A stretch of 63,056 bases of DNA, the filler included, from Craspedostauros australis (lineage: Eukaryota), in NCBI GenBank assembly GCA_030167865.1. It is 7 parts of 7 records of this genome, joined end to end, with 100 filler letters (N's around TTAATTAATTAA, not from the genome) between each part and the next. Parts side by side here need not be neighbours in the genome. Positions count along the whole stretch, not along the records: positions 55,345 to 63,056 come from JALAGF010006417.1; 6 more parts are not named here. One strand, 5' to 3'. The notes below the pieces were generated by a model, which had not been told where the DNA came from, searched no databases, and saw only the letters and a list, made by a program, of their open reading frames with translations. Of this stretch, positions 17,627 through 63,056 are shown one piece after another. Position numbers and translations under genes: made by a program. Position 1 is the stretch's first letter. Each line of letters starts with the position of its first letter.

Positions 17627-18319
17627 AGCAGCAATGGTTTGGGAATGAAATCAGGCATCAAATCCACATCGCTATGTGTATGGCATGTACGAGTACTAAT
17701 ATGCATGGCACTGGTGTCTCTTCTTATCGCAGAGCAAGACAAAGAGACGGCAGAAATAGGGTCAACAACAGCAGCATGAGAAGGAGAAGACGCAACCCAA
17801 ACATCAGTTATTCATTGAATGAATCCATGTCACCCTCTGCATAGCATAGCACTCGCACCTCGTATTTGTACTTGTACTTGTACGAGCTTGTATGAATAGT
17901 CTCAATCTTGTGCAGATGTCAACCAGCAGATGGACAAGATCACCAGATCCTTCCCGCAATTTCCGCGCCGGTTAGTGCCGAGATCACGAATAATGGGACT
18001 ATCTTAGTTCTCTAGCCTCAACAACAAGAAAGGCGAAAATCTCGAAACAGCAACCAAAGACGAGTTTCTGTTGTTGCGCACATCATGGCAGTGATCGCAG
18101 AGGAGCACACAAAGAGAGGCGAACATAACCCATCAACCCAACCAAACACAACGACAGCCAAGGCTGGTCCTTCGACGAAAGTCCATTTCGCAGTCCGCAG
18201 AATCCTGGTTGGGGAGTGTCCATTCAGCCCAACTCAACTCAACTCAACTCGACAAATACGAGTCAATCGCATTGCATTGCATTGCATTGCATTGCATCGC
18301 AAAGGAAAGGAAAGGAACG

Positions 18320-19498
18320 ATGACGAAGGTGCAGGGCGATGGAGGCGGCAAAGCCAAGTCGAAAGGCAAGAGCGATGGCAAACATGGCGGGGACACGGAA
18401 GGTGGATACACGTACGCCATCCACCCATCGTCCAAGTGGTTGGAACCCGCCCGAGAAGACGAGATCTCCATGTTCGAGGTCTTCCGCACGCCCAGAAAGA
18501 TCGAGAACTTGGACCGCCGCATCCGGGCCTCGCTGGAGCTGCTCAACACGGAATTCCGCTGTGCCATCTGCCTCGGCTACCTCAAGGACACAACGGCCGT
18601 GCGCAACTGCTTGCATCGCTTCTGCGGGGAATGCATCCACAAGTGCGTCCGGATGGGGCTCAAGGAATGCCCCAGCTGCCGCAAGCCCATCGCCTCGCGT
18701 CGCGCGCTGAAGGCGGACACCAAGTTCGATGCCATCGTCAAGCACGTTCTGGGCAGCGACGCCATCGAGGAGGAATCCACGGAGAGCCTGCAGTCGCAGC
18801 AGGATGCGCTCAAGATGGTGCATCTGCAGCGCGCCATTCAACGCAAGCGGAGCCTCCTGGATCAGCAGCGCAAGAACGGCGGGCATGCCAGCAAGAAGGC
18901 AAAGTCGCCCAAGCCTGCGCCCGTCGAGGAAGCGCCCATCGTGATGCGGCCGGAACGAACCGTGCTAAAGACCTCACCTCTCATCGAAATCGAATTGCGT
19001 CGGCATCCCACGGAAACGAAGGTGGATGCCCTCGACAAGGCGTTCCTGACGCTGCGTGCTGATTGCAAGGTGTCCTTCCTGAGGAAGTTCCTGGCGAAGA
19101 AGCTCGTCGACTGTGACTACCAGATCGTGTCGACGATTGATGACAACGTCTACGTCCTGCATGACGAGATGTCGATGCTGCAGGCGCAGGATATTGTTCG
19201 TCAGGAGGGTGCAACAGTGCTCAAGTATCGTTGCATCTCGCCCCGGACCAACTTCATGGCAGATACCGACGCGGAGCCTTGTGAGGAACGGGCAGGAATG
19301 ACTGTCGCTGCTGCAACGTACATGGACTCAGCGACGGCAGGAGGTCACGAAGACGTTGGCATGGTGCAACGATCCCTGTCTCCGCCCCAAAATGAAATAC
19401 CAGTGCTCCAGTCGCTCGAGGCAGAGCTGGAGACGGCGTTCTCGTTCCGAACAAGACCAAGGGCAGCATCGACACAAAAGCGTGATGCTTCGAGGTAG
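18320..19498 (+). CDS. RING1: RING1/RNF2-like E3 ubiquitin ligase (PRC1 catalytic subunit homolog)
   Basis: C3HC4 RING CAIC..CLHRFCGECI..KECPSCRKPIASRRALKADTKFDAIV plus a RAWUL-like segment IEIELRRHP..VSFLRKFLAKKL. ATG at 18320. A possible intron from ~19495 to 19580 would extend the CDS to ~19678. Confidence 0.85.
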   Translation: MTKVQGDGGGKAKSKGKSDGKHGGDTEGGYTYAIHPSSKWLEPAREDEISMFEVFRTPRKIENLDRRIRASLELLNTEFRCAICLGYLKDTTAVRNCLHRFCGECIHKCVRMGLKECPSCRKPIASRRALKADTKFDAIVKHVLGSDAIEEESTESLQSQQDALKMVHLQRAIQRKRSLLDQQRKNGGHASKKAKSPKPAPVEEAPIVMRPERTVLKTSPLIEIELRRHPTETKVDALDKAFLTLRADCKVSFLRKFLAKKLVDCDYQIVSTIDDNVYVLHDEMSMLQAQDIVRQEGATVLKYRCISPRTNFMADTDAEPCEERAGMTVAAATYMDSATAGGHEDVGMVQRSLSPPQNEIPVLQSLEAELETAFSFRTRPRAASTQKRDASR

Positions 19499-23332: not shown

Positions 23333-23870
23333 GTCTCCTTCGACGTGTGCTCGAGATCAAGATGGATTGTGCCAAGACGCAAGCAGAAGATGGCGCATCA
23401 AAGGAGATGGCAAAGTGCTCGCACGGAGACTCGAGCTTCGTTGATGATGCCCATCCGCGATGATTTCGTGGTTGTGATTGGGGGTCATCCATTTTGTGTC
23501 ATTCTTCGTGTTTTGCGCGTTGTATTGGATCGAAGGAGTCGGGCATCATTTATTCGTGGATCATGTGCAGTCACGTGTTTCGATTCGTGTTGTCATTTTG
23601 AGTTCTTTTCGATTTTCGGCGGCAGCTGGGACACCCGGCAAGTCCATTGAAATGTTCGTCGTTTGACTCATTTGACCAAAGAGATGAATCGAGGCTGTTT
23701 AATCGAATTAGTCTTTCCTCCACAACCTGTGTCGTTGCATTGGCTGAAAATGACCTATTGATGTCGTACCGTTAAGTATTATATTTAACGAGATCGTCTA
23801 TTGGTGTCCAATGACCGCCGTTGTGANNNNNNNNNNNNNNNNNNNNNNNNNNNNNNNNNNNNNNNNNNNN

Positions 23871-28915: not shown

Positions 28916-30871
28916 CTACTCCTTCGCAATGCTCTCCTTCTCGAAGATCATCAAGCACTCGATGTGCCTGGTTTGTGGGAACAGGTCGAAGGGTAGAATC
29001 TTCGTGATCGCATACCCCGCCTTCACGATGCCTTCGGAATCGCGGGCCTGCGTCGTGGGATCGCAGGACATGTAGATGATACGTTGCGGCGCAAAGTCGT
29101 ACAGCTGCTTCAAAAAGTCTTCACTGCAGCCCTTGCGGGGCGGGTCCAACACGATGGCAGTGCGGTCGTTGGGGAAGTCGTCGGACAGAACATCGAAGAT
29201 AGCTTCGGCGGACGCGGCGCGGAATTCGCAGTTGGTGACGTTGTTGCGCTGGGCGTTTTGGGTGGCCTCCTCGATGGCCTGGTTGTTGATCTCGATGCCG
29301 ACGACGGTATCAAAATGTTGCGATGCCGACAATGCGAAGAGGCCGGAGCCGCAGTAGCAATCGGCCAGATGAGTCAATGATGTTCCTTCGGCGGTGGCGG
29401 CGTCGTCGGCATCCTGAGTGGATACCACAGGAGCTGTCGCATACTTCAATACCTGCTCCACCATCAACGGAAGGACGTAGTAGTTGTTTTGAAAGAAGTT
29501 GCCGGCGCGGTATCGAAAGTCCAGCGACCCGACGGTGGTCGTCAGGTATTCGTTGTTGTCGCTTTCGATGTACTCGTCGTTGAGATTGCCCTGGCGGAAC
29601 AGCAAGGTGGCGCCTTTCTTCTTTTTGCCAGGCGGCGGACTGTTCAACAGACTCTCCCGCGCCCTTTCGTACGCCACGTTGACTTCGGGCGTGCCGATGG
29701 GACAGCGCGGGACGTCGACGATCTGGCGCACGCTGGACTTCTGGAAGCCAATCGCCGTGATGACGGGGACATCTGTTGCGAAACTGTGATCGTCGTCGTC
29801 ATCGTTGTCTTTGGTGTCGACGTTCTTGCGTCCTCTGCGACTTTTGGATGGATTCTGATAGTGCGGTGTCAGCTTGGATCGGTACCCGAAGACTTCATCC
29901 GTTCCCAAGCACGGTGACACATGGACATCCGTGATGCCGTACTGCTTCAAGCCATCTTGCACGAAGCGCTGCTTCCAATCGCGCTGCGCGCCGATGCTCA
30001 TGTGCTGCAGTTGGCATCCACCGCAGGTCCCGTAGAGAGAGCACTTCGGTTCGATCCGATCCGGCGATGATTGCAAGACCTGCACGAGATCCGCCTCGCT
30101 GTAATTGTTGAAGTTCCGAAAGATACGCAACCGCACGCGTTCGCCGGGGATGACGCCCGGCACCATGACGACCCAGTTCGTTGTTTGCACGGTGGTCCTG
30201 TCGTCGTCTGCTTCCGTAGACGCCGATGATGAATCGACACTGCTATCATTTGGTGCTGCTATCAGACTGCTCCGCTCTTCTGATTTCTTGCTATCACCGC
30301 CGCCACCACGCGGACGCCGTCCTCCCTTCTTCTTCTTATGAGCATCACGCTGTTCCTGCGTGAATTGAATCGGAACACGAGCAATGCCCATTCCACGATT
30401 CGTGAGAGTCTCAATCTCCACATCGATCTCCTCGTGGTACTCGAATGGGAATGGTATGAATTTGGCTGGTCGTTTGAAGGCAGGTGGCGTCGTTGTTGGT
30501 GCGTCTGTTTCTGTTGTTGCGGCTGGCTGATTGGGGCCATTGGTGATATCTGAACTCTCCGTTGCTGTCATTTGCAATCCTGTCACGTGAAAATGCCGCA
30601 ATGGTGTTGCTGTTGTTGACGTTGGCGTTGTGGGTGTGGGTGTGGATGTGAACAACGATGAAATCATGGATCGCTGCTGCTGCTGCTGTTGCTGGTACTG
30701 ATGCTGTCGGTAAGACGTGATCCAGGCATACGCACCGACCTGCCCGTGCCTGAAGAGCACCGTGGAAAGGAGTAACCTTCCATTGCGTGATGTTGGCATG
30801 CCCAATGACACAGACTGTAGGAAAGATGCGACGCAAGACATGGCCAACACGCACAGAGGTGTGGTTCTCAT
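28916..30871 (-). CDS. TrmA/RlmD-family RNA (uracil-5)-methyltransferase with an N-terminal targeting extension
   Basis: TRAM-like IETLTNRGMGIAR and VIPGERV; CSLYGTCGGCQLQH Fe-S motif; FFQNN, DCYCGSGLF, VLDPPRKG, YMSCDP and FDLFPQTRHIE. First ATG at 30871. Confidence 0.93.
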   Translation of the reverse strand: MRTTPLCVLAMSCVASFLQSVSLGMPTSRNGRLLLSTVLFRHGQVGAYAWITSYRQHQYQQQQQQQRSMISSLFTSTPTPTTPTSTTATPLRHFHVTGLQMTATESSDITNGPNQPAATTETDAPTTTPPAFKRPAKFIPFPFEYHEEIDVEIETLTNRGMGIARVPIQFTQEQRDAHKKKKGGRRPRGGGGDSKKSEERSSLIAAPNDSSVDSSSASTEADDDRTTVQTTNWVVMVPGVIPGERVRLRIFRNFNNYSEADLVQVLQSSPDRIEPKCSLYGTCGGCQLQHMSIGAQRDWKQRFVQDGLKQYGITDVHVSPCLGTDEVFGYRSKLTPHYQNPSKSRRGRKNVDTKDNDDDDDHSFATDVPVITAIGFQKSSVRQIVDVPRCPIGTPEVNVAYERARESLLNSPPPGKKKKGATLLFRQGNLNDEYIESDNNEYLTTTVGSLDFRYRAGNFFQNNYYVLPLMVEQVLKYATAPVVSTQDADDAATAEGTSLTHLADCYCGSGLFALSASQHFDTVVGIEINNQAIEEATQNAQRNNVTNCEFRAASAEAIFDVLSDDFPNDRTAIVLDPPRKGCSEDFLKQLYDFAPQRIIYMSCDPTTQARDSEGIVKAGYAITKILPFDLFPQTRHIECLMIFEKESIAKE

Positions 30872-31741
30872 GATGTACAATTGCGCTTGCAAGTCACTTG
30901 GTTAGCTGCTTGTGAATGATGAAAGAACTGTGCTTGGGAGGATGCCGAAGAGGGTGTGGATGATGATGTCGGCGATCGTGATGTTGACTGTGGTGATAGA
31001 CACGAGTTGATTGATGGCGTATCCTTCCACATTTCTCGTGATGGGTTTTCTTGGTTGGCTGATTGCGTGAAATCAACGAATCCGTATGTATGGACGGACA
31101 ATACTAATGTCTATTAGTTATTGGAGGATTGAGGCAAAATGCATTTATTCATAATAAATATATACCATCCGTGAACACGCGTGTCCACAAAGATCGCTTC
31201 CAAATTCACGTTTACACATTTTGCACAATGAATCATCTTTCCTGTTCTTGAGCCCAAGCAGACAGAAGCAACGGTCCACCAACTCGCTGACCCGAAGACC
31301 ACATCATCACGTCACACGATACCGTTTCGTAGGTGTATCCTTTTGGTTCCTCAAATCTCTTGTTCTCCATCAGCCGAATTGATTCCTCATAAAATCAGAA
31401 ACGAAACCTGTTGGTATACGGTCGAAGGCCAGACGGAGCAGCAAATGAACCCCTGTTCACAGCCTCAGCAGAGACAACAGAGACGAGTCATAATAACTTC
31501 ACATCACACACACACACACACTACTCGTATCGTCTCCCGATCATCACAGGTTATGAGGAAATACGCTTATACTATATAAGACAATCCCCATTGCTTCGTC
31601 ACCCTCTCTGTATTTTGGAAATCCCCATCCAAACGCAGCTCNNNNNNNNNNNNNNNNNNNNNNNNNNNNNNNNNNNNNNNNNNNNTTAATTAATTAANNN
31701 NNNNNNNNNNNNNNNNNNNNNNNNNNNNNNNNNNNNNNNNN

Positions 31742-40240: not shown

Positions 40241-40499
40241 GAGCTATTAGCTCAAACTAGTATTCCTATTAGTCGTGTTAAGATTTAGTCGAGTTAATCA
40301 AATGACCAACTGCTCAGAGTTTGAGCGGGATTGAAGCGTGACTCGATGTCGGTGGGATGGGGTCCCACCCTCGAATCGTGCTCTACTNNNNNNNNNNNNN
40401 NNNNNNNNNNNNNNNNNNNNNNNNNNNNNNNTTAATTAATTAANNNNNNNNNNNNNNNNNNNNNNNNNNNNNNNNNNNNNNNNNNNNGCAGCAGAATCG

Positions 40500-43400
40500 G
40501 TGGATGGGATGGCGATGTCAACGCCGATGCAAAGCCATCAACGTACGAGTGTTGCGATCACGTACCAGACGTTGATCTATGCAACGGCGCATCTCGTCAT
40601 TCAATTGAGACAGAAGATCCGCCAATGCGCGCCGCTTCCTTCATTCGACGAGAACATTCCATCCATCGGTTTGCCCATCGCCGTTGCCATGCCGGAAGGT
40701 CCGCTCCTGCCCCTCGTCATCCTCGCGGTGCATTGTCTCAATCATCCCTTCCGACTTGGGCAACGCGATGGCGCAGCGTACCACGGGCACGCGGTCATGA
40801 TTCCGATCGAGCCCAGCCAAGACGCGAAACAGAGGATCGCGCATATGATGGAGGATTCGAGGCCGTTGCTGGTGCTGTCCACGTCGCAAGGCGGTGCCGA
40901 CTATCAGATTCTCCGATCTATTGTTCATCGTGACGCTGGAAACAGCAATGGCAACGCAGCTGTCGAAGGGCGGATCAAATCAACTTCATCGGCACGTTAC
41001 ATGCCCGCCGAAAAATCACACCTCGTTGACTTGCATCAGTTATGCCAGAGTATACCGTCGATCAATTCAGACATGGAGCATCAGATCAATGATGTCTTTC
41101 GAGTTTATTTGGAATCCAACAAGAAAGGCAAGGCACGCGGCGATCAGATTTCTCTGAAGCTGGCGATCAACTTCCTTGCTGATACATGGGATGATTCAGA
41201 TCGAATGGACAGCAGCAGTGCGTCCACTATCTTGGCAGAAACGCATACGATACCGAACGACATCGCGTCTCGCAATCGGCTTTCGCATATGGTCTACACG
41301 TCCGGCACGACGGGATGGCCAAAGGGTTGCATGTCCTCCATCCAGTCGTTGGACAACTACCTGCGTGCCAAGAACGAAGCGCATTCTGTCACATCCGAAT
41401 CTACAGTTCTGCTGGCAAGTGCGCTGTCCTTCGATCCATGCATGTCCGATGTGTTGGCCACCTTCCTATGCCAAGCGACGCTGGCCATCGCGCCACGGTC
41501 AAGGCTCGTCAGTCACCTCTCACAGATCCTTCGGCAGCTGCACGTCACGCACTTGCTGTGCACGCCGACGTTGTTTCGTTTGGTCCAGGAGCCGCCCGCT
41601 GCGTTTCCGCAATTGAGGACGTTGGCGTTGGGCGGCGAACCCATTCCGGCATCTATCCGGCGTGTTTGGGGAGCGGGCGCAATGGCAACGAGCAAGACGG
41701 AATGTAAGCTGCTCGCCACGTACGGTGTGACGGAAGCATGCGTATATCAAACCATGGGAGAAGTGTGCCATTTGCCATCATTGCCAGCGTCTTTGTCTCA
41801 CGCTCAAGCCGTCACGAGCAATCAAGCGAAGGCTGCGAGGCGGGCCACCGGAAAAGGGTTCGTTGGACTACCGTTCCCAGGCATGCAAGTGCAGATGTGT
41901 GTGGAAGCAATTCAAGACAGAATCGTTGCCGTTGCGCAAGATGATGGTGGCGTTGCCAACGGCCCTGATAGATTCGGGGAGATTGTGCTTTCTGGCAACC
42001 AACTGGATGAATTCTCCGGATACTGGAATCGCGATGACTTGCATCACAAATTCATTTGCGAGACTCAATCTGCTGCAACGCGGTGCTTCTACCGAACAGG
42101 CGACAGGGGGTACATCGACCACGATGGCAGCATCCATGTGATGGGGCGAATCCAAGGCGAGGAAGGCATGATCAAGCATAATGGTGTTCGGATCGAGCTA
42201 AACGAGATCGCTGCGGCCATGGAGGAGTGGCCAGGCACGTCATCAAGCATCGTGCAAGGCTGCGTCGTCGTGGCGCGTACGGTTCCATTGCATCAAGGGT
42301 CCGAACAGAGCGGTGCTTCCCATGACGATGGAGATGGCGACATTGGCAGTGACGACGATACGAAGACAGAAATTCATGCCTACGTCGTGCTCACGGATTC
42401 CTGTCTCCGTAGCATGGGGGTTCGATTCGATTCATCAAGGAAGCAGCCGCCGGCCTATCTCATCAGTCCCAGCCCCCTCTGGACACTACTTCGCGCGGCA
42501 TGCCTGTCCAGGATCAAATCGGCATGTGTGCCGTCGAGCTTCGTGCTGATCTCCCAAATACCACTGTCACCAACGGGCAAGAGAGACAACCGGCAGTTAC
42601 CTCGGTTGCAGGACTGTCTCAAGTTTAACTTTGCCAAGCAAGCCAACAGCGGCATCGGAAACGATACTTGCGACGACGACGAGAACAGCGGTGACGATGA
42701 AGGGAGTACGCCACTGGCAGAATACGGCAACACGGGAAGGCTCGTCGCCGAACAAATCATCGAGTGTCTGAATCTGCAACAGTGCCAACAATCCATGCTC
42801 ACCATCGATGCCAGCTTTGGCATGCTCGGAGGAGACTCCCTGGCCGCGACGCGGATCACGCGTGCCCTGTACGCAATGCATCATAACATCAACAACACTC
42901 GGCATCTCGGTGGAGAATACGGAACATTGGAGGGACCCTTCAATGTTGTTCATATCCTTCGCGCGACGAAGCTGAAGCATTACATCGACATGCTGGATGA
43001 TCATAACGTTTGCAGCCACGCTTGGGATCATGAAAAGCAAAGTGGGACAGCTGATTCCGCGACCCAAACATCATTGCCGTCGCCAATGGCAACCACAGAC
43101 GTTGCATCGCCGCATGACGCCGAACAACAGCGACTGTACGACGCGCTGCTGCAGGCGTGNNNNNNNNNNNNNNNNNNNNNNNNNNNNNNNNNNNNNNNNN
43201 NNNNNNNNNAACATCAACAACACTCGGCATCTCGGTGGAGAATACGGAACATTGGAGGGACCCTTCAATGTTGTTCATATCCTTCGCGCGACGAAGCTGA
43301 AGCATTACATCGACATGCTNNNNNNNNNNNNNNNNNNNNNNNNNNNNNNNNNNNNNNNNNNNNNNNNNNNNNNNNNNNNNNNNNNNNNNNNNNNNNNNNN

Positions 43401-43652
43401 GCCGTCGCCAATGGCAACCACAGACGTTGCATCGCCGCATGACGCCGAACAACAGCGACTGTACGACGCGCTGCTGCAGGCGTGCACCTTGCAACAGACG
43501 GACGTCGCCATCGGACTGCTGCAGTTCGGCGCCGACCCCAACTGGGGTGCGCACGGTGGACGGTTGGGCAAGACCTCCGGCCGCATCGCGCAGAAGCAAA
43601 TCTTCCGATCCAGCCCCCTGCACCTGGCCGCGGCGAAGGGCGATGCGCGTCT
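40500..43652 (+). CDS. NRPS-like protein: adenylation domain, carrier (T) domain, ankyrin repeats; partial at both ends
   Basis: YTSGTTGWPKG, SFDP, YGVTE, YRTGDRG, IKHNGVRIEL and PLSPTGK motifs; phosphopantetheine site LGGDSL; then GADPN and SPLHLAAAKGD. 43210-43483 duplicates earlier sequence across N gaps. Confidence 0.88.
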
Positions 43653-53587: not shown

Positions 53588-55244
53588 AGACGAGAGCATC
53601 GGGGTCACTGAAGTCGCAATGCCAGGGGTCGATGTCAACAATGCGCCACCAGCGCAAGAAGAGGAAGCAACTGGCACTCGCATGAGCAGCGCCATTGACT
53701 ACTTCCTACGTGACAAGATCGACCGCGTATGTGAACGCAGCAGGATGGATGCATGGTGTCCAATCTGCCTCGCGCGTGGAGCGATGTATTCGTGGTGCAC
53801 GGAGTGCACCGAATTCAACGTATTCAAGATCCGAGCCCCATGGGCGTTCAGAAAGATCCCGACGACCACCGAACCGGAAAGNNNNNNNNNNNNNNNNNNN
53901 NNNNNNNNNNNNNNNNNNNNNNNNNNNNNNNNNNNNNNNNNNNNNNNNNNNNNNNNNNNNNNNNNNNNNNNNNNNNNNNNNNNNNNNNNNNTGTGCTACG
54001 ACGTGAGGAGGGAATCCATTCGGGAGAGAGCCTACTGCTTGGGAACCCGAGAGCTCTACTACATGCTCACCCAAATTGGGTTCGAAGGAGCATATGACAT
54101 ATCGCTCAAGATCGTGGTCATCAACGAGCTGCTCGAAGAGAAAGGACTACCACTACTCCCCAAGCACCTCATTTTGAGGATGAGCCGCCTGTGTACCCAA
54201 CGCGTCTCATGGATGAGAGGCTGGGACGACACCGAAGTAAGAGACGGTTTGGAGTGCCCGGAACTCCCAAAGGTCAGACCAATGGCAGGAAGCCCGGAAT
54301 ACAAANNNNNNNNNNNNNNNNNNNNNNNNNNNNNNNNNNNNNNNNNNNNNNNNNNNNNNNNNNNNNNNNNNNNNNNNNNNNNNNNNNNNNNNNNNNNNNN
54401 NNNNNNNNNNNNNNNNNNNNNNNNNNNNNNNNNNNNNNNNNNNNNNNNNNNNNNNNNNNNNNNNNNNNNNNNNNATGAGGGCATGACTAACGTGCGCCTC
54501 TCGAACTTCTCTGTGAAGGTGGGAAGCGGAAAATTCCTCCGCGCCACTAAGGTCGGTGATCTACGCATGCGAGTGATGCAGAAGGATGGCAAGAGCGCCA
54601 TCATCATCCTGAAGGGAGTGCGTTACGTGCCTAAGCTCTNNNNNNNNNNNNNNNNNNNNNNNNNNNNNNNNNNNNNNNNNNNNNNNNNNCGATTCGACTC
54701 AGTGGAGGACGCCGTGAGGGTCTCTCTCTCCAACGTCTTGGAAGCCGTGCAGGTGCGAATCAATGGCGCCATCCTGTGCTACGACGTGAGGAGGGAATCC
54801 ATTCGGGAGAGAGCCTACTGCTTGGGAACCCGAGAGCTCTACTACATGCTCACCCAAATNNNNNNNNNNNNNNNNNNNNNNNNNNNNNNNNNNNNNNNNN
54901 NNNNNNNNNNNNNNNNNNNNNNNNNNNNNNNNNNNNNNNNNNNNNNNNNNNNNNNNNNNNNNNNNNNNNNNNTGTGTACCCAACGCGTCTCATGGATGAG
55001 AGGCTGGGACGACACCGAAGTAAGAGACGGTTTGGAGTGCCCGGAACTCCCAAAGGTCAGACCAATGGCAGGAAGCCCGGAATACAAACTCGAGCTGATG
55101 GAACACTTCGAACAAGCAAGGTTCGGACACGAAATGGCCATGGTGACCGAAGATCACGAATCGAGTGAGAGCAACCGCGAGCTGGTTGCACCAGACCAAC
55201 ATGAAGCTAACACATGGTTGGGGGATACCGGCGCGTCTTGCCAC
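53588..55244 (+). mobile_element. Gappy Ty1/copia polyprotein fragment (extra C4 domain plus protease)
   Basis: WLGDTGASCH protease motif and GVRYVPKL; homologous to 55345-57630. Piece order is scrambled by the assembly. Confidence 0.85.
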
Positions 55245-55344: not shown

Positions 55345-57630
55345 CATGATGCGGTCGAAACGGATACGCAATCCGTTCTTCTCGAGAGCCATCACCACAC
55401 CCTTGTTGCTGATGTCGAATCCGCTTTCAAGTGCCTTTGTGATGCTCAGGAGATTGACCCAAAGCTTGGGGACGAACTTGACCGCCTTGAGGATGATGAT
55501 GACCTCCGAGCCATCCTTCTGCATCACCTTCATGCGTTTGTCGCCCATCTTCGTTGCTTTGAGGTAGCGTCCGCTTCCCACCTTCACTGCGAAGCTCGCG
55601 AGGCGCACGTTCGTCATGCCCTCGTCGCTGTTGGTGAGATGACACGATGCCCCCGAGTCGCCAAGCCAGGTGTTTGCCTCGTGGCGATCTGGCGCGATGG
55701 TCTTCTTGCGTTCGCCGGCGTCGTACATGTCGCCGATCACCATGGCTAGCTCATGCGCATGGTTGTACCCGTAGATGGGCAGCTCGTCGAACATGTGCCC
55801 GTCGCGCACGCCGTTGTTTGATGGATGATGGATCCAAAGCAGGCGATCCGCGGCCATGGCGCTCATACGCGAGATCAGGTTCTTCGGGAGTGGCGGGAGA
55901 CGATTCTCCTCAAGCAAATCGTTGATGTCGATTGCCTTGCTCGCCACNNNNNNNNNNNNNNNNNNNNNNNNNNNNNNNNNNNNNNNNNNNNNNNNNNNNN
56001 NNTCCATGCGGTTCTCGTCGATGCCTTGGTATGCCTCCATCGCGTCATAGCAGATGAGCGAGAGGTCGGAACGAACATCATTCGCAGGTATCACGTTGGA
56101 CAGCGAGCATCTCACCGCATAGGGAGGGTTGTCGCTTGCAAGGATTTGGCGGCGTTGGAGCTTCTCAGCTGGCGTCACAGGCACGTCTCCCTTTGGTCCT
56201 CCTGGGATGAGGATCAAGAATGGGCAGAACGGGCAGTCAACACACCATGAGAACAAAGGCCCTTTGGTCAGGCACAGTGGGCACCACGCGTTGTCGTTGT
56301 CACGCCGAGACGCGGTCTCGATCAATCCGTCCAAGTAGGAGCAGATGGGGCGCACGTTGTAGATCGGCTCTGGTCGCCTTGCTGAGGCCGTCACGTGGAG
56401 ATCGATGCCGGGCATCGCGATCTCGTTGCTTTCGGTTTCGTCAGCTTCGCTCTCATCGGACGAGAACAAATTGTCGCTCATCATGCGATCCGCGTCGACT
56501 TGTGGTCCGTAGTAGCCGTAGTCGTTCGGGCTACGGATCCCAACCACTTCGATCGATTCCTCGTCGTTGTTGTTGTTGGTTCCGTTGTAGAACCCTGCGG
56601 CCAAGTCTCCGTCGACGACCACGAGAGCCATGTCCTCCATGAGGTTTTCGATGTTGCTCTCAGTGTCGTGGGTGCGGGTTGTCACGATTTCGTGGTCGGT
56701 GAGAATTTGTTTTTCGCTCACATTTTGGGTGTTGCGCGCGATTTCTCCATCCTCTGCGATTTCGTGACACAACATCACTTCATCAACGCTGACCAGCGCG
56801 ACGTCGTCCATGCCGTCCATCCCGTCGGTAGCCACATTGGCTGAGTCCACGTCCTTCATCGCTGCTCTCAACTTGAAGCATTGCACGATCTTGTGGCCTG
56901 TCTTGCCACAGAACTTGCACTTGCCGTTGAAGCCTCCGGCGCTGAAGTTGCCGTTGTTGCGGTTGCCGTTGCCGCGGTTGCCGTTCTTCTTGGCGCCACC
57001 GCCTTGCTTGCCGTTGCCGTTCTTGATTGGGGAGCGACAGTCCGCCTTCTTGTGCCCGTAGACGCCACAGTTGCGACAGTTGCCCTTGAACCCGCCGATC
57101 GCGGCCAAGGNNNNNNNNNNNNNNNNNNNNNNNNNNNNNNNNNNNNNNNNNNNNNNNNNNGCCGTTGTTGCGGTTGCCGTTGCCGCGGTTGCCGTTCTTC
57201 TTGGCGCCACCGCCTTGCTTGCCGTTGCCGCTCTTGGTAGGGGAGCGACAGTCCGCCTTCTTGTGCCCGTAGACGCCACAGTTGCGACAGTTGCCCTTGA
57301 ACCCGCCGATCGCGGCCAAGGCCATCTCCTCCTTGCCATGGTTGCCTCCTTCGCGCTTAGAACCATGTTTGGTATGGTGGCGGTCGTAGGTGAGGCACAC
57401 GGCCTCGCGGATGTCCTCAACTGTCATCTTGTCTTCTTTGCCTGCGAACTTGAGCTCTATGAGCTTCACGTCCATCTTGTAGTCTCTTCCGAGAGCGTTG
57501 AGCACAAGCATGTTGTATTGCTCGACGTCCATATTCACGCCAGCATTCTCCAAATGGTTGCGGAGCACCTCCATGTCGGTGAGGAACGAATCAGGGCGCT
57601 CGCCCTTCTTCAACTGCATTCCGTTGAGTT
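55345..57630 (-). mobile_element. Ty1/copia gag-protease region, 5'-truncated
   Basis: Gag (LVLNALGRDY), CCHC knuckles CRNCGVYGHKKADC and CKFCGKTGHKIVQC, an extra domain, then protease WLGDSGASCH..VKFVPKLWVNLLSI. No stops in the visible sequence. Confidence 0.92.
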
Positions 57631-57631
57631 G

Positions 57632-57656
57632 AGGGTTAGGGTTAGGGGTTAGGGTT
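57632..57656 (+). repeat. Interstitial telomeric repeat (TTAGGG)~4
   Basis: AGGGTTAGGGTTAGGGGTTAGGGTT at the point where gag ends. Confidence 0.8.
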
Positions 57657-58099
57657 TGTATCAACCATACATGTCTCGGTGGGGGTCCAGCAGGATGTGG
57701 GACACGTGCGGGGGACCTCCCTGGACCAGCGGGACCTCACCCGGACACCTCCCACTTCGTGCTTTGGGTCCGTACCTGGCTTAGGGTGTTTTCCTAATGC
57801 CTTGCAAGGTGCTGGAATACGCATGGGAGGTGGCTGGTTGGATCCGCCTTGGTCGACTTGGCCAACCTGCGGGTGCAGACTGTGACTAATCCACGTTCCT
57901 GGGGCTGCGGAGGGATCAGTATGGAGCAGGGAGTGTCGGTGGGACCATGCCCAAATGTCGCAGTTGACGTCTTTGACCTCAACGCTTTCACTTTTTGGGT
58001 CCGCCGTGTAAGCATTACCCAATCTGCGGCCTTTGACCATCGTTTTTCGGCCGTTCAAGCTAGTTGTGTCCCATTTGTCATTGGTTGTTGCGACCCCAC

Positions 58100-60410
58100 T
58101 GAGGGTCCATATTTCAATCCCTTCAAGACGTCTTTAAGGAGTGGGAGATGCCGCATTCGATCCGCGCTGCGCTCATGAACCATAGTACGAGGTCCAACCG
58201 CGACTTTTGGACGCCTCTTGTCAGTCATCGTGCTCGCAAGTGGTGTCCACGTTGAAACCTGGATTTTGTTACAGATGTCAGATTGGAGTGGGAGGTGTCG
58301 CAATCGATCCGCAGTGCTCTACTTAGTCATAATCTGAAGGCAAACCTCACTTTGTTAATGACAATTCATGATCATCGTACTACCCAGGTGCTTGCCCCAT
58401 GGTGTCCACATTGCTGGACAGACCTTGTTGTAGACCTCATTACGAAGTGGGAGATGCGGCAATCGATCCGCAGTGCGCCCATTAGCCAAAATCCGAGGGC
58501 AAATGGCACTTTTTAGATGACAATGTGGGATCATCGTACTTGCTCATGCTTCCTGGTAGTCATCGTTGAAAACTGGATTTTGTTGCAGAGGTCAGATTGG
58601 ACAAGGAGGTGTCGCAATCGATCCGCGGTGTGATAACTAGCCATAATCTGAAGTCAAATCATGCATTTGGTGTAACAGCTATGGGTTGTTGTACCTCCCT
58701 ATATCCAACATATGACAGCTGGATTGTCTTGTAGATGGAATTACGAAGTGCGAGGGGTCGCATTCGATCCGCGGTGTGTTCATTAGCCATACTATGAGGT
58801 CAAACCATGCATTTGATGTGACATCTANGGGTTGTCGTACTTGCCCGTNGTGACTGCTTTCCCCACTGAGTGTCCATGTTGTGAAACATGGTTAGTGTGT
58901 TCATCATTACGAAGTGCGAGGTGTCGCATTCGATCCGCGGTGCGCTAATTAGCCATAATCTGGAGTAAAACCATGCATTTAATGTAACAGCTTTGGGTCG
59001 TACTACCTCCCTATATCCAACATATGACAGCTGGATTGTCTTGTAGATGGAATTACGAAGTGCGAGGGGTCNNNNNNNNNNNNNNNNNNNNNNNNNNNNN
59101 NNNNNNNNNNNNNNNNNNNNNCGATCCGCGGTGTGTTCATTAGCCATACTATGAGGTCAAACCATGCATTTGATGTGACATCTACGGGTTGTCGTACTTG
59201 CCCGTAGTGACTGCTTTCCCCACTGAGTGTCCATGTTGTGAACCATGGTTAGTGTGTTCATCATCAAGATGTCGGGGGTGTCGTATTCGATCCGCAGTGT
59301 GATAATTAGACATAATATGAGGTTAAACCATGCATTTAATGTAACAGCTTTGGGTCGTACTACCTCCCTGTGGCCACCATATGACAGCTGGATTGTCTTG
59401 TAGATGGAATTACGAAGTGCGAGGGGTCGCATTCGATCCGCGGTGTGTTCATTAGCCATACTATGAGGTCAAACCATGCATTTGATGTGACATCTATGGG
59501 TTGTCGTACTTGCCCGTAGTGACTGCTTTCCCCACTGAGTGTCCATGTTGTGAAACATGGTTAGTGTGTTCATCATTACGAAGTGCGAGGTGTCGCATTC
59601 GATCCGCGGTGCGCTAATTAGCCATAATATGAGGTCAAGCCATGCATTTGATGTAACAACTTTGGGTTGTCGTACCTCCCTATATCCACCATATGACACC
59701 TGGATTGTCTTGTAGATGGAATTACGAAGTGAGAGGGGTCACATTCGATCTGCCGTGTGTTCATTAGCCATACTATGAGGTCAAACCACAGATGTGATGT
59801 GACATCTATGGGTTGTCGTACTTGCCCGTAGTGACTGCTCCCCCCACTGAGTGTCCATGTTGTGAACCATGGTTGGTGTGTTCATCATTACGAAGTGGTA
59901 GATGTGGCAATAGATCCGTAGTGTGCTAATTAGCCATAATATGAAGCCAAATCATGGTTTGAATGTGACAACTTTGGGTTGTCGTACCTCCCTATATCCA
60001 CCATATGACAGCTGGATTGTCTTGTAGATGGAATTACGAAGTGGGAGGGGTCACATTCGATCCGCCGTGTGCTAATCACCCATAATATGAGGTCAAACCC
60101 CGGTTTGGATGTGACATCTACGGGTTGTCGTACTTGCCCGTGGTGACTGCTTTCCCCACTGAGTGTCCATGTTGTGAACCATGGTTGGTGTGTTCATCAT
60201 CAAGATGTCGGGGGTGTCGTATTCGAACCGCAGTGTGCTAATTAGCCACAATATGAAGTCAAACCATGGATTTGACGTGACAACTTTGGGTCGTTGTACT
60301 TGCCCGTGCTTGCTCGTAGTGTCCCCGTTGAAAATGGATTTTGTTGGAGACGTCAGAACGGAGTGGGAGGTGCCACAATCAATCCTCAGCATGATAAGTA
60401 GCCATGACAT
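58100..60410. repeat. Satellite with a 312-bp unit made of 146- and 166-bp related monomers
   Basis: Core TTCGATC(C/T)GC at 59286, 59432, 59598 and 59744; exact 312-bp period (59157, 59469 and 60093 two units later); edges are more diverged. Confidence 0.92.
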
Positions 60411-60459
60411 GATGTGCTACTGCGATTTTGATGTGAGTGATCAAGCTCTTTGTACTGGC

Positions 60460-62000
60460 TTGTGTGAATGCGGTCCATCACGTTCCATCATGAGTGACTG
60501 CGTGCTATCATGGTCCACCACATGACATCACGTGATCCTGCGGTCCATCACGATCCATCACAATCCATCACTGTCTATCACATGTTGCTCCATGTTATCA
60601 CATGCTACTGCATGCACTCACTGTCCATCACTGTCCATTACGGTCCGTTACATTGCATCGCGTGTCATCCCAATCTATCACGGTGCATCATGGTGCATCG
60701 CTTGTCATCGGCTGTCATCGCAGTGTGTCACGTGTTGCTGCCTGTATCATCATGGTCCATCATATTCCATCATGTGTCATCGCCTGCTATTGCGGTTTAT
60801 TGCATCTCATCACGTGTTACTGCATGCATCATCGCGGTCCATCACATGTTAGTGCAGTCTATCACGAGTTACTGCATGTTGTCATTTGTTCCTGCATGCT
60901 ATCACATGCTACTGCATGCACTCACTGTCCATCACTGTCCATAGCAGTCCACCATGGCCCACTGCGTGTCAATGCGGTCTGGCATGGTGTATCATGTGTA
61001 ATGACAGTCCATCATGGTCCATCGCTGCCTACAATGTGCTGCTGCCTGTATCATCTCAGTGCATCATGTTCCATTGCCTGTCATCGCGTCTTGTCATGTG
61101 CTACTGCGTACTATCGCGTGCTACTGTGTGCTATCGCGAGTTGCTGCGTGTTATCACATGTTCTGCATGCACTCACATTCCATCGTAGTCCATCGCGGTC
61201 CATTGCGGTCCAATACATTGCATCGTGTGTTGGTGCAGTTGACTTTAATCAGAACACTGCTGGGACAGACACCGGACGGAGCAAGGACGTGCCTGTCATC
61301 CACAGATTTGATTCAACGGCTGGCAGTCATTACCACCACCAAGCTGCACATCACAAGGCAAACAGCAGCAAAGAGGCGAACAACAAACATGCAAACCTGC
61401 AAACACGCAAACAAGCAAAAAAGCACAACAGCTCATAATCTTGTGTAAACTATCTGATTGCACCACCCACATCCATCACACAGCTCTGCCTCTGGTCTAT
61501 CGCTTTGGTTCATTTCCGGGTTGGAACCGCTGCAGACGTTGTTGTTTCAACATCGTGTGCCATCGCGGTCTATCACGGTGCATCATGATCCATTTCTTGT
61601 CATTGGCTCTCATTGCAGCCTGTCACATTCTGCTGCCTGTATCATCATGGTTCTTCATGTTCCATCGTGTGTCATCGCCTGCAATTGTGGTTTATTGCGT
61701 CTCATCACGTGTCACTGTGTGTTTCACCGCGGTCCATCACATGTTAGTGCGGTCTTTCACCAGTTACTGTGTGTTCTCATTTGTTCCTGCATGATACCCC
61801 ATGCTATTGCATGCACTCACTATCCATCATGGTTGATCACAATTGCATGGCATGTTGCTGCGTGTTTCATCGCCTGTCATCACGGTCAATCGTGTGCGTG
61901 TGCATGTGATCACGTTGGATCGTGTGCTATTGTGATCCATCACGTGTCAACATGGTCTATCATGGTCTATCATGTGCAACTGTGGTCCATCATGGTCCAT
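60460..62000. repeat. Degenerate CATCAC/GGTCCATC-rich minisatellite with an internal duplication
   Basis: Approximately 10-bp periodicity; ~60660-60940 resembles ~61550-61830. Confidence 0.7.
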
Positions 62001-62519
62001 GTCAGGAATCAAGGGTGCAACTATGCTGTGATACCCATGACTACTGCACCTCCCAACAATAGCATTCAGACTATTCCAAATGAACTCTCATTGATCACAC
62101 TGGGACCACCTTATGGCCTGTCCTGCATCACATCCAGTCATGCTCTGCTATGTGGCCTGGCCTGTCCCCACCCAACAACAAGTGTGAAGGAGGAATCCAA
62201 CCACTGGGAAAGGATCCGCCTATGACCAGAGACCATGGACTGTAGACGAAGTATATATGAATGATGGCAAGGTGCTCTGATGGACAAGGGCACTTTGGAG
62301 TCACCTGAAAGAGAGGGCTTTGGGGTACGTATTGGCAGTACTGAATGTGTGAATATCTCAGTCAAGGGCGTTGAAACAGATAGTGGCAGTGACTTCAACT
62401 GTGAGACTCAACAATGAACCATGCTTAGCATTTGAGTGTAGCCACAGGCATCATGGAGTGGCCAGCAGAATGCACAATGTGTGAGAGACAACTCTAGGGG
62501 GTTGTGCATGCGCATGTGA

Positions 62520-63056
62520 ACGAGCGTTGTTGGGATGTGTGAGTATCACAGTTGATGGTGTTGAGAGAGGGAGACTTGCTCCTCCTCCCCCTGTGGTCAT
62601 TCCATTTACATGTGACCACAGCCATCCATCCATGAGTTGGTGGGTGTTGACAGATAGTTCATTTGATGTTGACAGATAGTTCATTGTGTGTTGACTGTTG
62701 CATCACGGTCTCACATGTTGTTGTGTGTTGTGGCTGGTTGTACGGTGTGGCACTGTGTGTGTGTGTGTGTGTGTGTGTGAGCACATGGATGTGTGAGTAT
62801 CACAGTTGATGGTGTTGACTTCCCCCTCCTCCCCCACAAGTCAGCCATTTCATGGGACTTGTGCCATCCTCCTGTAGTTGGAATGGTGTTGACAGATAGT
62901 TCATTGTGTGTTGACTGTTGTATCGTGGTTTCACATGTTGTTGTGTGTTGTGGCTGGTTGTACCGTGTGGCAGTGTGTGTGTGTGTGTGAGCACATGGAT
63001 GTGTGAGTATCACAGTTGATGGTGTTGACTTCCCCCTCCTCCCCCACAAGTCAGCC
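62520..63056. repeat. Tandem repeat of 210-254 bp containing (TG)n
   Basis: GAGTATCACAGTTGATGGTGTTGA at 62541, 62795 and 63005. Confidence 0.88.

Follow-up and report, generated by a model that had tools for sequence, protein, structure and literature searches.

A Conserved Orphan Block with a Four-Cysteine Motif between the Gag Knuckles and the Protease of Copia-Type Elements in Craspedostauros australis

We have studied a stretch of DNA of 63,056 nucleotides from Craspedostauros australis (assembly GCA_030167865.1), referred to below as the window, that contains parts of two retrotransposons of the Ty1/copia type. Their polyproteins include a block of about 250 residues that is open in frame with the CCHC zinc knuckles of Gag and with the aspartic protease, is conserved between the two element families past the saturation of synonymous sites, and belongs to no described family. 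From comparison of the sequences, the interpretation that we favor on balance is that one lineage of Ty1/copia type has genuinely gained the block in its Gag-Pol, where an acidic spacer is followed by a module of approximately 225-250 residues under purifying selection.

The window comprises seven short scaffolds strung together with N...TTAATTAATTAA...N linkers, starting at positions 23827, 31642, 40388, 43653, 53488 and 55245, and is not a single locus. Since the scaffolds have been joined artificially, features on either side of a linker are not physically linked. The first element (copy 1) sits on the minus strand where the last scaffold begins (55345-63056; JALAGF010006417.1), while the second (copy 2) is on the plus strand of the scaffold that precedes it in the window (53588-55244). 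Both scaffolds stop in or just past the protease, and no reverse transcriptase is found in the window.

Results

The polyprotein of copy 1 is read on the minus strand from 57108 to 55345 as a single open frame of 588 codons, interrupted only by an assembly gap of 55 N (55948-56002) that falls within the block. The order of its parts is knuckle 1, a Gly/Asn-rich stretch, knuckle 2, an acidic spacer, the block, the protease motif WLGDSGASCH and 98 further residues of the protease. A preliminary description of this DNA had placed a stop-free, in-frame block between the knuckles and the protease, and this is what the open frame contains, given the one gap. A single gap-free contig contains 368 codons of this frame, which run from the knuckles to mid-block.

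Pfam matches in the 588-codon frame are limited to the knuckles and the copia-type protease barrel. Knuckle 1 (57037-57078, minus strand) matches PF00098 with 22.1 bits (cut-off 20.8), and knuckle 2 (56878-56919, minus strand) was read directly from the sequence. The protease (55345-55668, minus strand) matches PF22936 (Pol_BBD) with 48.8 bits (cut-off 27). Its motif WLGDSGASCH occupies 55639-55668, with the catalytic DSG at 55651-55659. Upstream of the knuckles, and separated from them by an assembly gap of 50 N (57111-57160), is the C-terminal half of a copia-type Gag (57371-57631, minus strand). This aligns with positions 87-169 of the 172 positions of PF14223 (Retrotran_gag_2) with E = 1.4e-4 and a score of 21.8 bits, which does not reach the cut-off of 27 in this 5′-truncated copy. 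Copy 1 is incomplete at both ends, its Gag beginning at profile position 87 and its protease being ended by the scaffold edge. The truncated Gag directly abuts a telomere-type CCCTAA repeat of about 3.5 units (57628-57655, minus strand), which is either an interstitial telomere-like repeat at the point of truncation or the result of an assembly chimera.

Knuckle 1 recurs at 57248-57289, within a repeat of 161 nt (98% identical) that flanks the N gap at 57111-57160. We read this repeat as an unmerged assembly overlap, so that the element has two knuckles and not three. Between knuckle 2 and the block lies the acidic spacer of 151 amino acids (56425-56877, minus strand), of which 24% are Asp or Glu, giving a net charge of -28. 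It contains two motifs of the A-L-V type, at 56779-56808 and 56608-56637 on the minus strand.

The block itself extends over 252 codons up to the protease motif (55669-56424, minus strand), from EIAMPGID beginning at 56424 to HEANT ending at 55669; counted between the two E-x-A-M motifs that flank it, the length is 224. The continuity of the frame across the 55-N gap rests on the gap size given by the assembler. The distance from CYD to IN-LLEE is 39 residues in both copies, in agreement with the size of the gap in copy 1. In neither copy is there a gap at the junction of the block with the protease motif. Its content of hydrophobic residues (0.41) and of order-promoting residues (0.38) is like that of the protease part (0.44 and 0.38, respectively) and unlike that of the acidic spacer. 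The GC content at third codon positions (GC3) is 0.75 in the block and 0.72-0.87 in the neighboring parts of the frame, and thus gives no sign of a recent foreign origin. We also considered that the insert might have arisen by duplication of the protease or the spacer. This was dropped, as a comparison of spacer, block and protease segments with one another revealed no resemblance (all z <1.2).

The block contains a C-x2-C-x9-C-x2-C motif (56233-56283, minus strand) in which a Trp residue stands ahead of each CxxC. The motif was found exactly where it had earlier been described. The degenerate pattern W-C-P-x-C-x3-G-x4-W-C-x2-C matches only two places in the window, 56233-56286 (minus strand) in copy 1 and 53754-53807 (plus strand) in copy 2, and matched none of 100 shuffled windows. 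Two familiar classes of zinc-binding sequence were compared with it. RanBP2/NZF fingers have the consensus W-x-C-x2-C-x3-N-x6-C-x2-C, and short zinc ribbons have the form C-P-x-C-G ... C-x2-C-G. The motif resembles these in that two CxxC elements stand some 9-10 residues apart, the first Cys is followed by Pro, and an aromatic residue is found by the first knuckle. It differs from them in that the spacing is 9 and not 10, Trp is adjacent to Cys, and neither the conserved Asn nor a Thr-Phe is present. Assignment as a RanBP2/NZF finger was rejected, since that signature is lacking and no Pfam or NCBIfam model was matched by either copy at E up to 10. Nor is it a retroviral CCHC knuckle (C-x2-C-x4-H-x4-C), since it has four Cys, no His and a spacing of 2-9-2; the match to the CCHC model is confined to the knuckles upstream.

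A second version of the block is found in copy 2. A tblastn search of the window with the block of copy 1 recovered copy 2 in four pieces, with E values of 1.4e-10, 1.5e-9, 5e-5 and 2e-3, and no other convincing match in the whole window. On its scaffold copy 2 is broken into five pieces that are out of order and partly duplicated as exact repeats, all on the plus strand. The start of the block, with the four-cysteine motif at 53757-53807, is contained in a piece at 53589-53879 that was placed by tblastn and alignment. The middle of the block, from AVR-SLSNV to CYD and beyond, is at 54690-54857 (50% identity over 30 residues). The region from CYD to E-L-P is at 53994-54305, and overlaps the preceding piece and the next through the exact repeats. 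The end of the block, with E-M-A-M and the protease motif WLGDTGASCH, is at 54975-55244. A further piece of the protease, out of order at 54477-54638, is 72% identical to copy 1, and the protease pieces of the two copies form an inverted repeat in the window with 76% DNA identity.

Reassembled in this way, the block of copy 2 is collinear with that of copy 1. The alignment requires one indel of 2 residues and one of 1 residue, together with an insertion of 18 residues in the copy 2 tail. The part that runs from the cysteine motif to E-L-P has a single 1-residue indel, and by our count from the sequences the spacing from the four-cysteine motif to AVR-SLSNV is equal in the copies, at about 38 residues. 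The scaffold of copy 2 begins 7 residues ahead of the block and lacks Gag, so that the position of the block is established relative to the protease only. The claim that a second element has the block at the same position was therefore borne out on the protease side, where the block is collinear and precedes the protease, while the Gag side is not on the scaffold of copy 2.

How strongly has the block been conserved? Over 197 aligned codon pairs the amino-acid identity is 42%, with 60% positives. The proportion of synonymous differences, pS = 0.718, is at the level of a null obtained by shuffled pairing (0.711), whereas the proportion of nonsynonymous differences, pN = 0.401, is well below the corresponding null of 0.732. 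The uncorrected ratio pN/pS = 0.56 (bootstrap range 0.46-0.69), and since the synonymous sites of the block are saturated the true dN/dS lies below this value. For the protease pieces (64 codon pairs, 75% identity, 92% positives) pS = 0.558, pN = 0.178 and pN/pS = 0.32 (bootstrap range 0.18-0.51). The block therefore evolves faster than the protease. The combination of synonymous saturation with a constrained protein indicates that the two families split long ago, and that the block has been under purifying selection for most of the time since.

All four Cys residues of the motif and the Trp ahead of each CxxC are identical in the two copies, and a fifth Cys, in CYD, is also kept. Conservation is concentrated in islands, comprising E-x-AMPG, the four-cysteine stretch, AVR-SLSNV, CYD, IN-LLEE--LP-LPK-LI-RMS, VRDG, ELP and HE-AMV. 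The proposal that the block is a selected, lineage-specific accessory module could have foundered on a dN/dS near 1 with unconserved cysteines. The 42% identity, the retention of the four cysteines and the saturation of synonymous sites go the other way, and the constraint seen between two diverged families supports the proposal.

We next consider the organization of related elements. Three relatives (L029, L030 and L031) are contigs of one bacterial bin (G001), to which we were led by the one contig that had the protease motif when prokaryote genomes were scanned, and a fourth (L033) comes from a second bacterial bin (G048), found in a search of 201 genomes (the first bin plus 200 related). 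In both bins these are short AT-rich contigs encoding eukaryotic copia-type Gag-protease-integrase, and evidently they are eukaryotic contamination. The protease of L029 is 51% identical to that of copy 1, that of L030 39%, and that of L031 36%. On L031 Pfam detects a copia-type Gag, the protease barrel, the pre-integrase and the integrase, and on L029 the protease and integrase-side domains. From the last knuckle to the catalytic Asp there are 61 residues in L031, 50 in L030 and 40 in L033, compared with 406 in copy 1. Thus the three relatives in which both landmarks are visible all have a short linker without the block, upholding the premise that the linker from knuckle to protease is ordinarily short in copia. 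Neither half of the block has a match in the bin containing L029-L031.

The E-x-A-M tetrapeptide occurs twice in the 588-residue frame of copy 1, compared with 0.098 occurrences expected from its composition, and the two occurrences flank the block. Upstream there is E-I-A-M (56413-56424, minus strand), with E-V-A-M in copy 2 (53610-53621), a candidate protease site. Downstream there is E-L-A-M (55741-55752, minus strand), with E-M-A-M in copy 2 (within 55128-55154), a candidate for the N-terminus of the mature protease. The contexts are EIAMPGID and HELAMVIGD in copy 1, and EVAMPGVD and HEMAMVTED in copy 2, and the surroundings are not conserved. Counted from the residue that follows the Met of the downstream motif, the distance to the catalytic Asp is 28 residues in both copies. 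The N-termini of retropepsins such as the HIV-1 protease are similarly some 25-30 residues ahead of this Asp. L029 has the sequence S-A-L-P-G-L-E-V-N 24 residues before its catalytic Asp, which resembles the upstream motif (a score reached by 21 of 500 shuffles), and motifs of the type acidic-x-A/V-L/M can be read some 18 to 40 residues ahead of the protease in the relatives that lack the block.

Does the block correspond to any domain already described? Searches of Pfam with six pieces of the block from both copies, and of NCBIfam with four pieces, gave zero families at E up to 10. A profile of the block found nothing among PDB sequences, and the single sequence gave two sub-threshold matches (E = 0.077 and 1.4). 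With two unbroken pieces of the block the best scores in the ESM Atlas were 0.83 and 0.79, in the range of shuffled proteins. Using phmmer against 1.84 billion protein representatives we obtained one match (E = 3.3e-4), to a repetitive bacterial PKD/fn3 surface-type protein of 1686 amino acids, which we regard as spurious. A word-indexed protein search with the block gave no match among either longer or near-length proteins; the same search against longer proteins was also blank for the protease part, so that this lineage is evidently ill represented in the index and little can be concluded from the lack of a match. Taken over Pfam, NCBIfam, the PDB, the 1.84 billion representatives and the ESM Atlas, there was no match to an annotated domain, and the block merits its original description as unrecognized.

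Nucleotide collections were searched with the same features. The four-cysteine motif gave 25 loci in metagenome contigs, all attributable to chance (in-frame stops or junk rich in Cys and Trp; best tblastn E = 0.037), and 2 loci in the viral contigs of IMG/VR, again both chance. The protease motif gave 0 loci in IMG/VR, and a locus search of that collection with a piece of copy 1 and with the protease alignment gave no confirmed relative.

Discussion

We have found that a copia-type lineage carries between its nucleocapsid and protease a sequence that is conserved in protein and saturated at synonymous sites. We prefer to regard it as a genuine module added to Gag-Pol, yet several observations weigh against this. 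The copies in evidence are two, both fragmentary, on short and gappy scaffolds, and neither is tied to an intact or active element. Within copy 1, 19 codons of the block fall in the N gap. The linker of the closest relative, L029, is cut off, 69 residues being visible upstream of its protease and these containing no knuckle; their similarity to the block is not significant (a score reached by 119 of 500 shuffles). The value of pS is lower in the protease pieces (0.56; 54477-54638 compared with 55463-55623) than in the block (0.72), and it may be that the scaffold of copy 2 is a mosaic of family members or that the protease region is constrained at the level of DNA or RNA. The stretches between the conserved islands have an identity of about 15% by our own count, a patchiness that fits linear motifs in a flexible linker as well. 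The E-x-A-M cleavage motif was found post hoc. Finally, AlphaFold2 with the two-copy alignment gave a mean pLDDT of 35.4 for the block, and hence no structure, though this is uninformative. In a control on the C-terminal part of the block together with the known protease domain the mean was 33.4, and the protease also scored below 50. The failure is therefore one of a shallow alignment, and carries no information on order or disorder. In view of this, the original picture of a globular zinc-finger domain of about 200 amino acids needs to be modified. An orphan block with a four-cysteine motif is there, but a single globular domain is conjectural, the conservation being patchy and both predicted models of no use. 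The cysteine motif itself spans just 17 residues.

In a different interpretation, the region is an expanded, mostly flexible spacer between nucleocapsid and protease that carries short conserved motifs (one mini zinc knuckle, a peptide rich in Leu and Pro, and sites for processing) without any folded domain, and would recruit host factors through linear motifs in the manner of the p6-type spacers of retroviruses. Conservation in islands with weak stretches between them would be expected of such a spacer, and it would be in keeping with the 151 residues of acidic, low-complexity sequence directly upstream, with the 18-residue insertion in the tail of copy 2 and with the lack of a confident AlphaFold2 model. 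This last point loses its force because the known protease domain failed as well. Moreover there is hardly any variation in length over some 200 residues at 42% identity, and the content of hydrophobic and order-promoting residues is like that of the protease domain. We therefore think a mostly flexible spacer unlikely. It might alternatively be supposed that the block is not released at all, and instead extends the protease at its N-terminus, as a pro-segment or as a domain for regulation or dimerization that times its activity. The position of the block is by itself compatible with this; block and protease are directly contiguous in both copies, and the final 10 residues before WLGD are nearly identical (APD-HEANT). 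Nevertheless the conserved HE-AMV precedes the catalytic Asp by 28 residues in each copy, and relatives without the block have motifs of the A-L/V-M type similarly placed ahead of the protease. Together these suggest that the N-terminus of the protease is generated there, and we judge an unreleased extension quite improbable.

Given the quality of the assembly, with its N gaps, unmerged overlaps and scrambled pieces, and given that copy 1 abuts a telomere-like repeat, we must also ask if the block could be an artifact or a passenger, that is, an assembly chimera or a captured fragment of a host gene without a role. Against this, the 368 codons from the knuckles to mid-block are gap-free in one frame, and the junction of block and protease is gap-free in both copies. 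The block is common to two families in which synonymous sites are saturated and the protein is constrained, and there is no further similar sequence in the window. An origin of this kind is very hard to reconcile with these data, and we give it little credence.

Returning to the module that we favor, how might it be produced and what might it do? Because E-x-A-M is conserved on both flanks, it is plausible that the block is released by the protease of the element. On this scheme an insertion immediately after the original site before the protease would have introduced the module, with a second site now closing it. Cleavage at both motifs would free a protein of about 224 residues, to be packaged in the virus-like particle, and would leave a mature protease that starts about 28 residues ahead of its catalytic Asp. 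The conserved W-C-x2-C-x9-W-C-x2-C stretch would bind one zinc ion, as a small finger resembling a knuckle pair or a ribbon. Proteins that bind single-stranded nucleic acid, retroviral nucleocapsid among them, typically have aromatic residues next to their zinc knuckles, and the aromatic residue beside each CxxC, together with the position directly after the nucleocapsid, leads us to favor a role with nucleic acid or the particle. The released module could then be a second nucleic-acid-binding or particle-associated factor beside the nucleocapsid.

In its strongest form the proposal is that this copia lineage encodes a mature orphan zinc-binding protein of about 25 kDa, hitherto unseen, that is cut out between nucleocapsid and protease at duplicated sites and has a new activity. 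Stated in full this is tentative, and we would not expect every part of it to hold. If it were true, the 25-kDa protein would be the first accessory protein at the position between nucleocapsid and protease in the Pseudoviridae, as far as our searches show, and the module could act as a second nucleic-acid chaperone, or as an integration-targeting or counter-silencing factor.

The assignment to Ty1/copia (Pseudoviridae) rests on the CCHC knuckles and, after them, an aspartic protease of the Pol_BBD type, with a sub-threshold match to copia-type Gag farther upstream. The knuckle and the retropepsin D-S/T-G are both recognized by their Pfam models (PF00098 and PF22936) above the cut-offs. In relatives L029 and L031 the protease is followed by integrase domains, whereas the scaffold of copy 1 ends inside the protease. 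The element departs from L030, L031 and L033 in the distance from knuckle to Asp, 40-61 residues in those relatives, its 406 residues including the orphan block.

There are precedents for coding sequence at this point in the retroviruses. HIV-1 p6/p6* and the betaretroviral dUTPase are encoded between nucleocapsid and protease, and presumably the viral protease releases them and they are packaged with Gag-Pol. They share their place in the polyprotein with the block, but they are retroviral and not copia, and have no similarity to it in sequence; no match of the block to dUTPase or to another accessory domain was found in Pfam (E up to 10) or in the PDB profile search.

A comparison may also be made with the CoDi elements. 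Among these, the CoDi6.2-6.5 families of diatoms have tandem CCHC knuckles, according to the parts consulted of Maumus et al. (2009; PMC2806351), and copy 1 is like them in this respect. The CoDi-A clade has gained an accessory domain, a chromodomain at the C-terminus of the integrase, according to the parts consulted of Llorens et al. (2009; PMC2774666). In the same parts of these two accounts there is no mention of a domain between Gag and protease. The words zinc, gag and polyprotein are absent from the consulted portion of a 2025 preprint on diatom transposable elements (10.1101/2025.10.24.684338), and a literature search judged by titles and abstracts returned no account of a domain between Gag and protease. 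A rare extra conserved domain in a retrotransposon polyprotein is also seen in orchid Ty3/gypsy elements, which carry an m6A demethylase domain (PMC9289625, as consulted in part). That capture differs in superfamily, in position and in the domain itself, and there, on the same partial source, the domain has a recognizable cellular homolog, while none was found for the block.

The usual view of copia-type elements is that they are compact and keep to a fixed plan of Gag, protease, integrase and reverse transcriptase, and further domains seldom become fixed in them. An orphan module under selection before the protease, if confirmed, would be a new example of the gain of function by retroelements. 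Since domain libraries do not see the block, annotation of elements from this lineage will go wrong, and the stretch could pass for a host gene. With two fragments as the evidence, the value of the observation lies in the lead that it provides and not in a settled function. Such a module would nonetheless be a defined protein to be tested for zinc binding, nucleic-acid binding or the recruitment of host factors.

Other Features of the Window

On the scaffold carrying copy 1, a tandem array at 59122-60299 contains 3.8 copies of a unit of 312 nt (89% matches), with an open reading frame (ORF) of about 100 codons in each, and more diverged copies of the unit are present at 58100-58900. Between 60500 and 62250 on the plus strand, long ORFs in different frames overlap one another over low-complexity DNA and are rich in His, Cys, Ser and Val. 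This region includes a 20-nt repeat (60841-60919), and is probably non-coding repeat DNA.

Elsewhere in the window there are long uninterrupted ORFs at 18095-19495 (plus strand), 28919-30901 (minus strand) and 40440-43439 (plus strand). Their domains are, respectively, a RING finger, a TRAM domain with a tRNA (uracil-5)-methyltransferase, and an AMP-binding enzyme, and they are ordinary host genes, apparently poor in introns.

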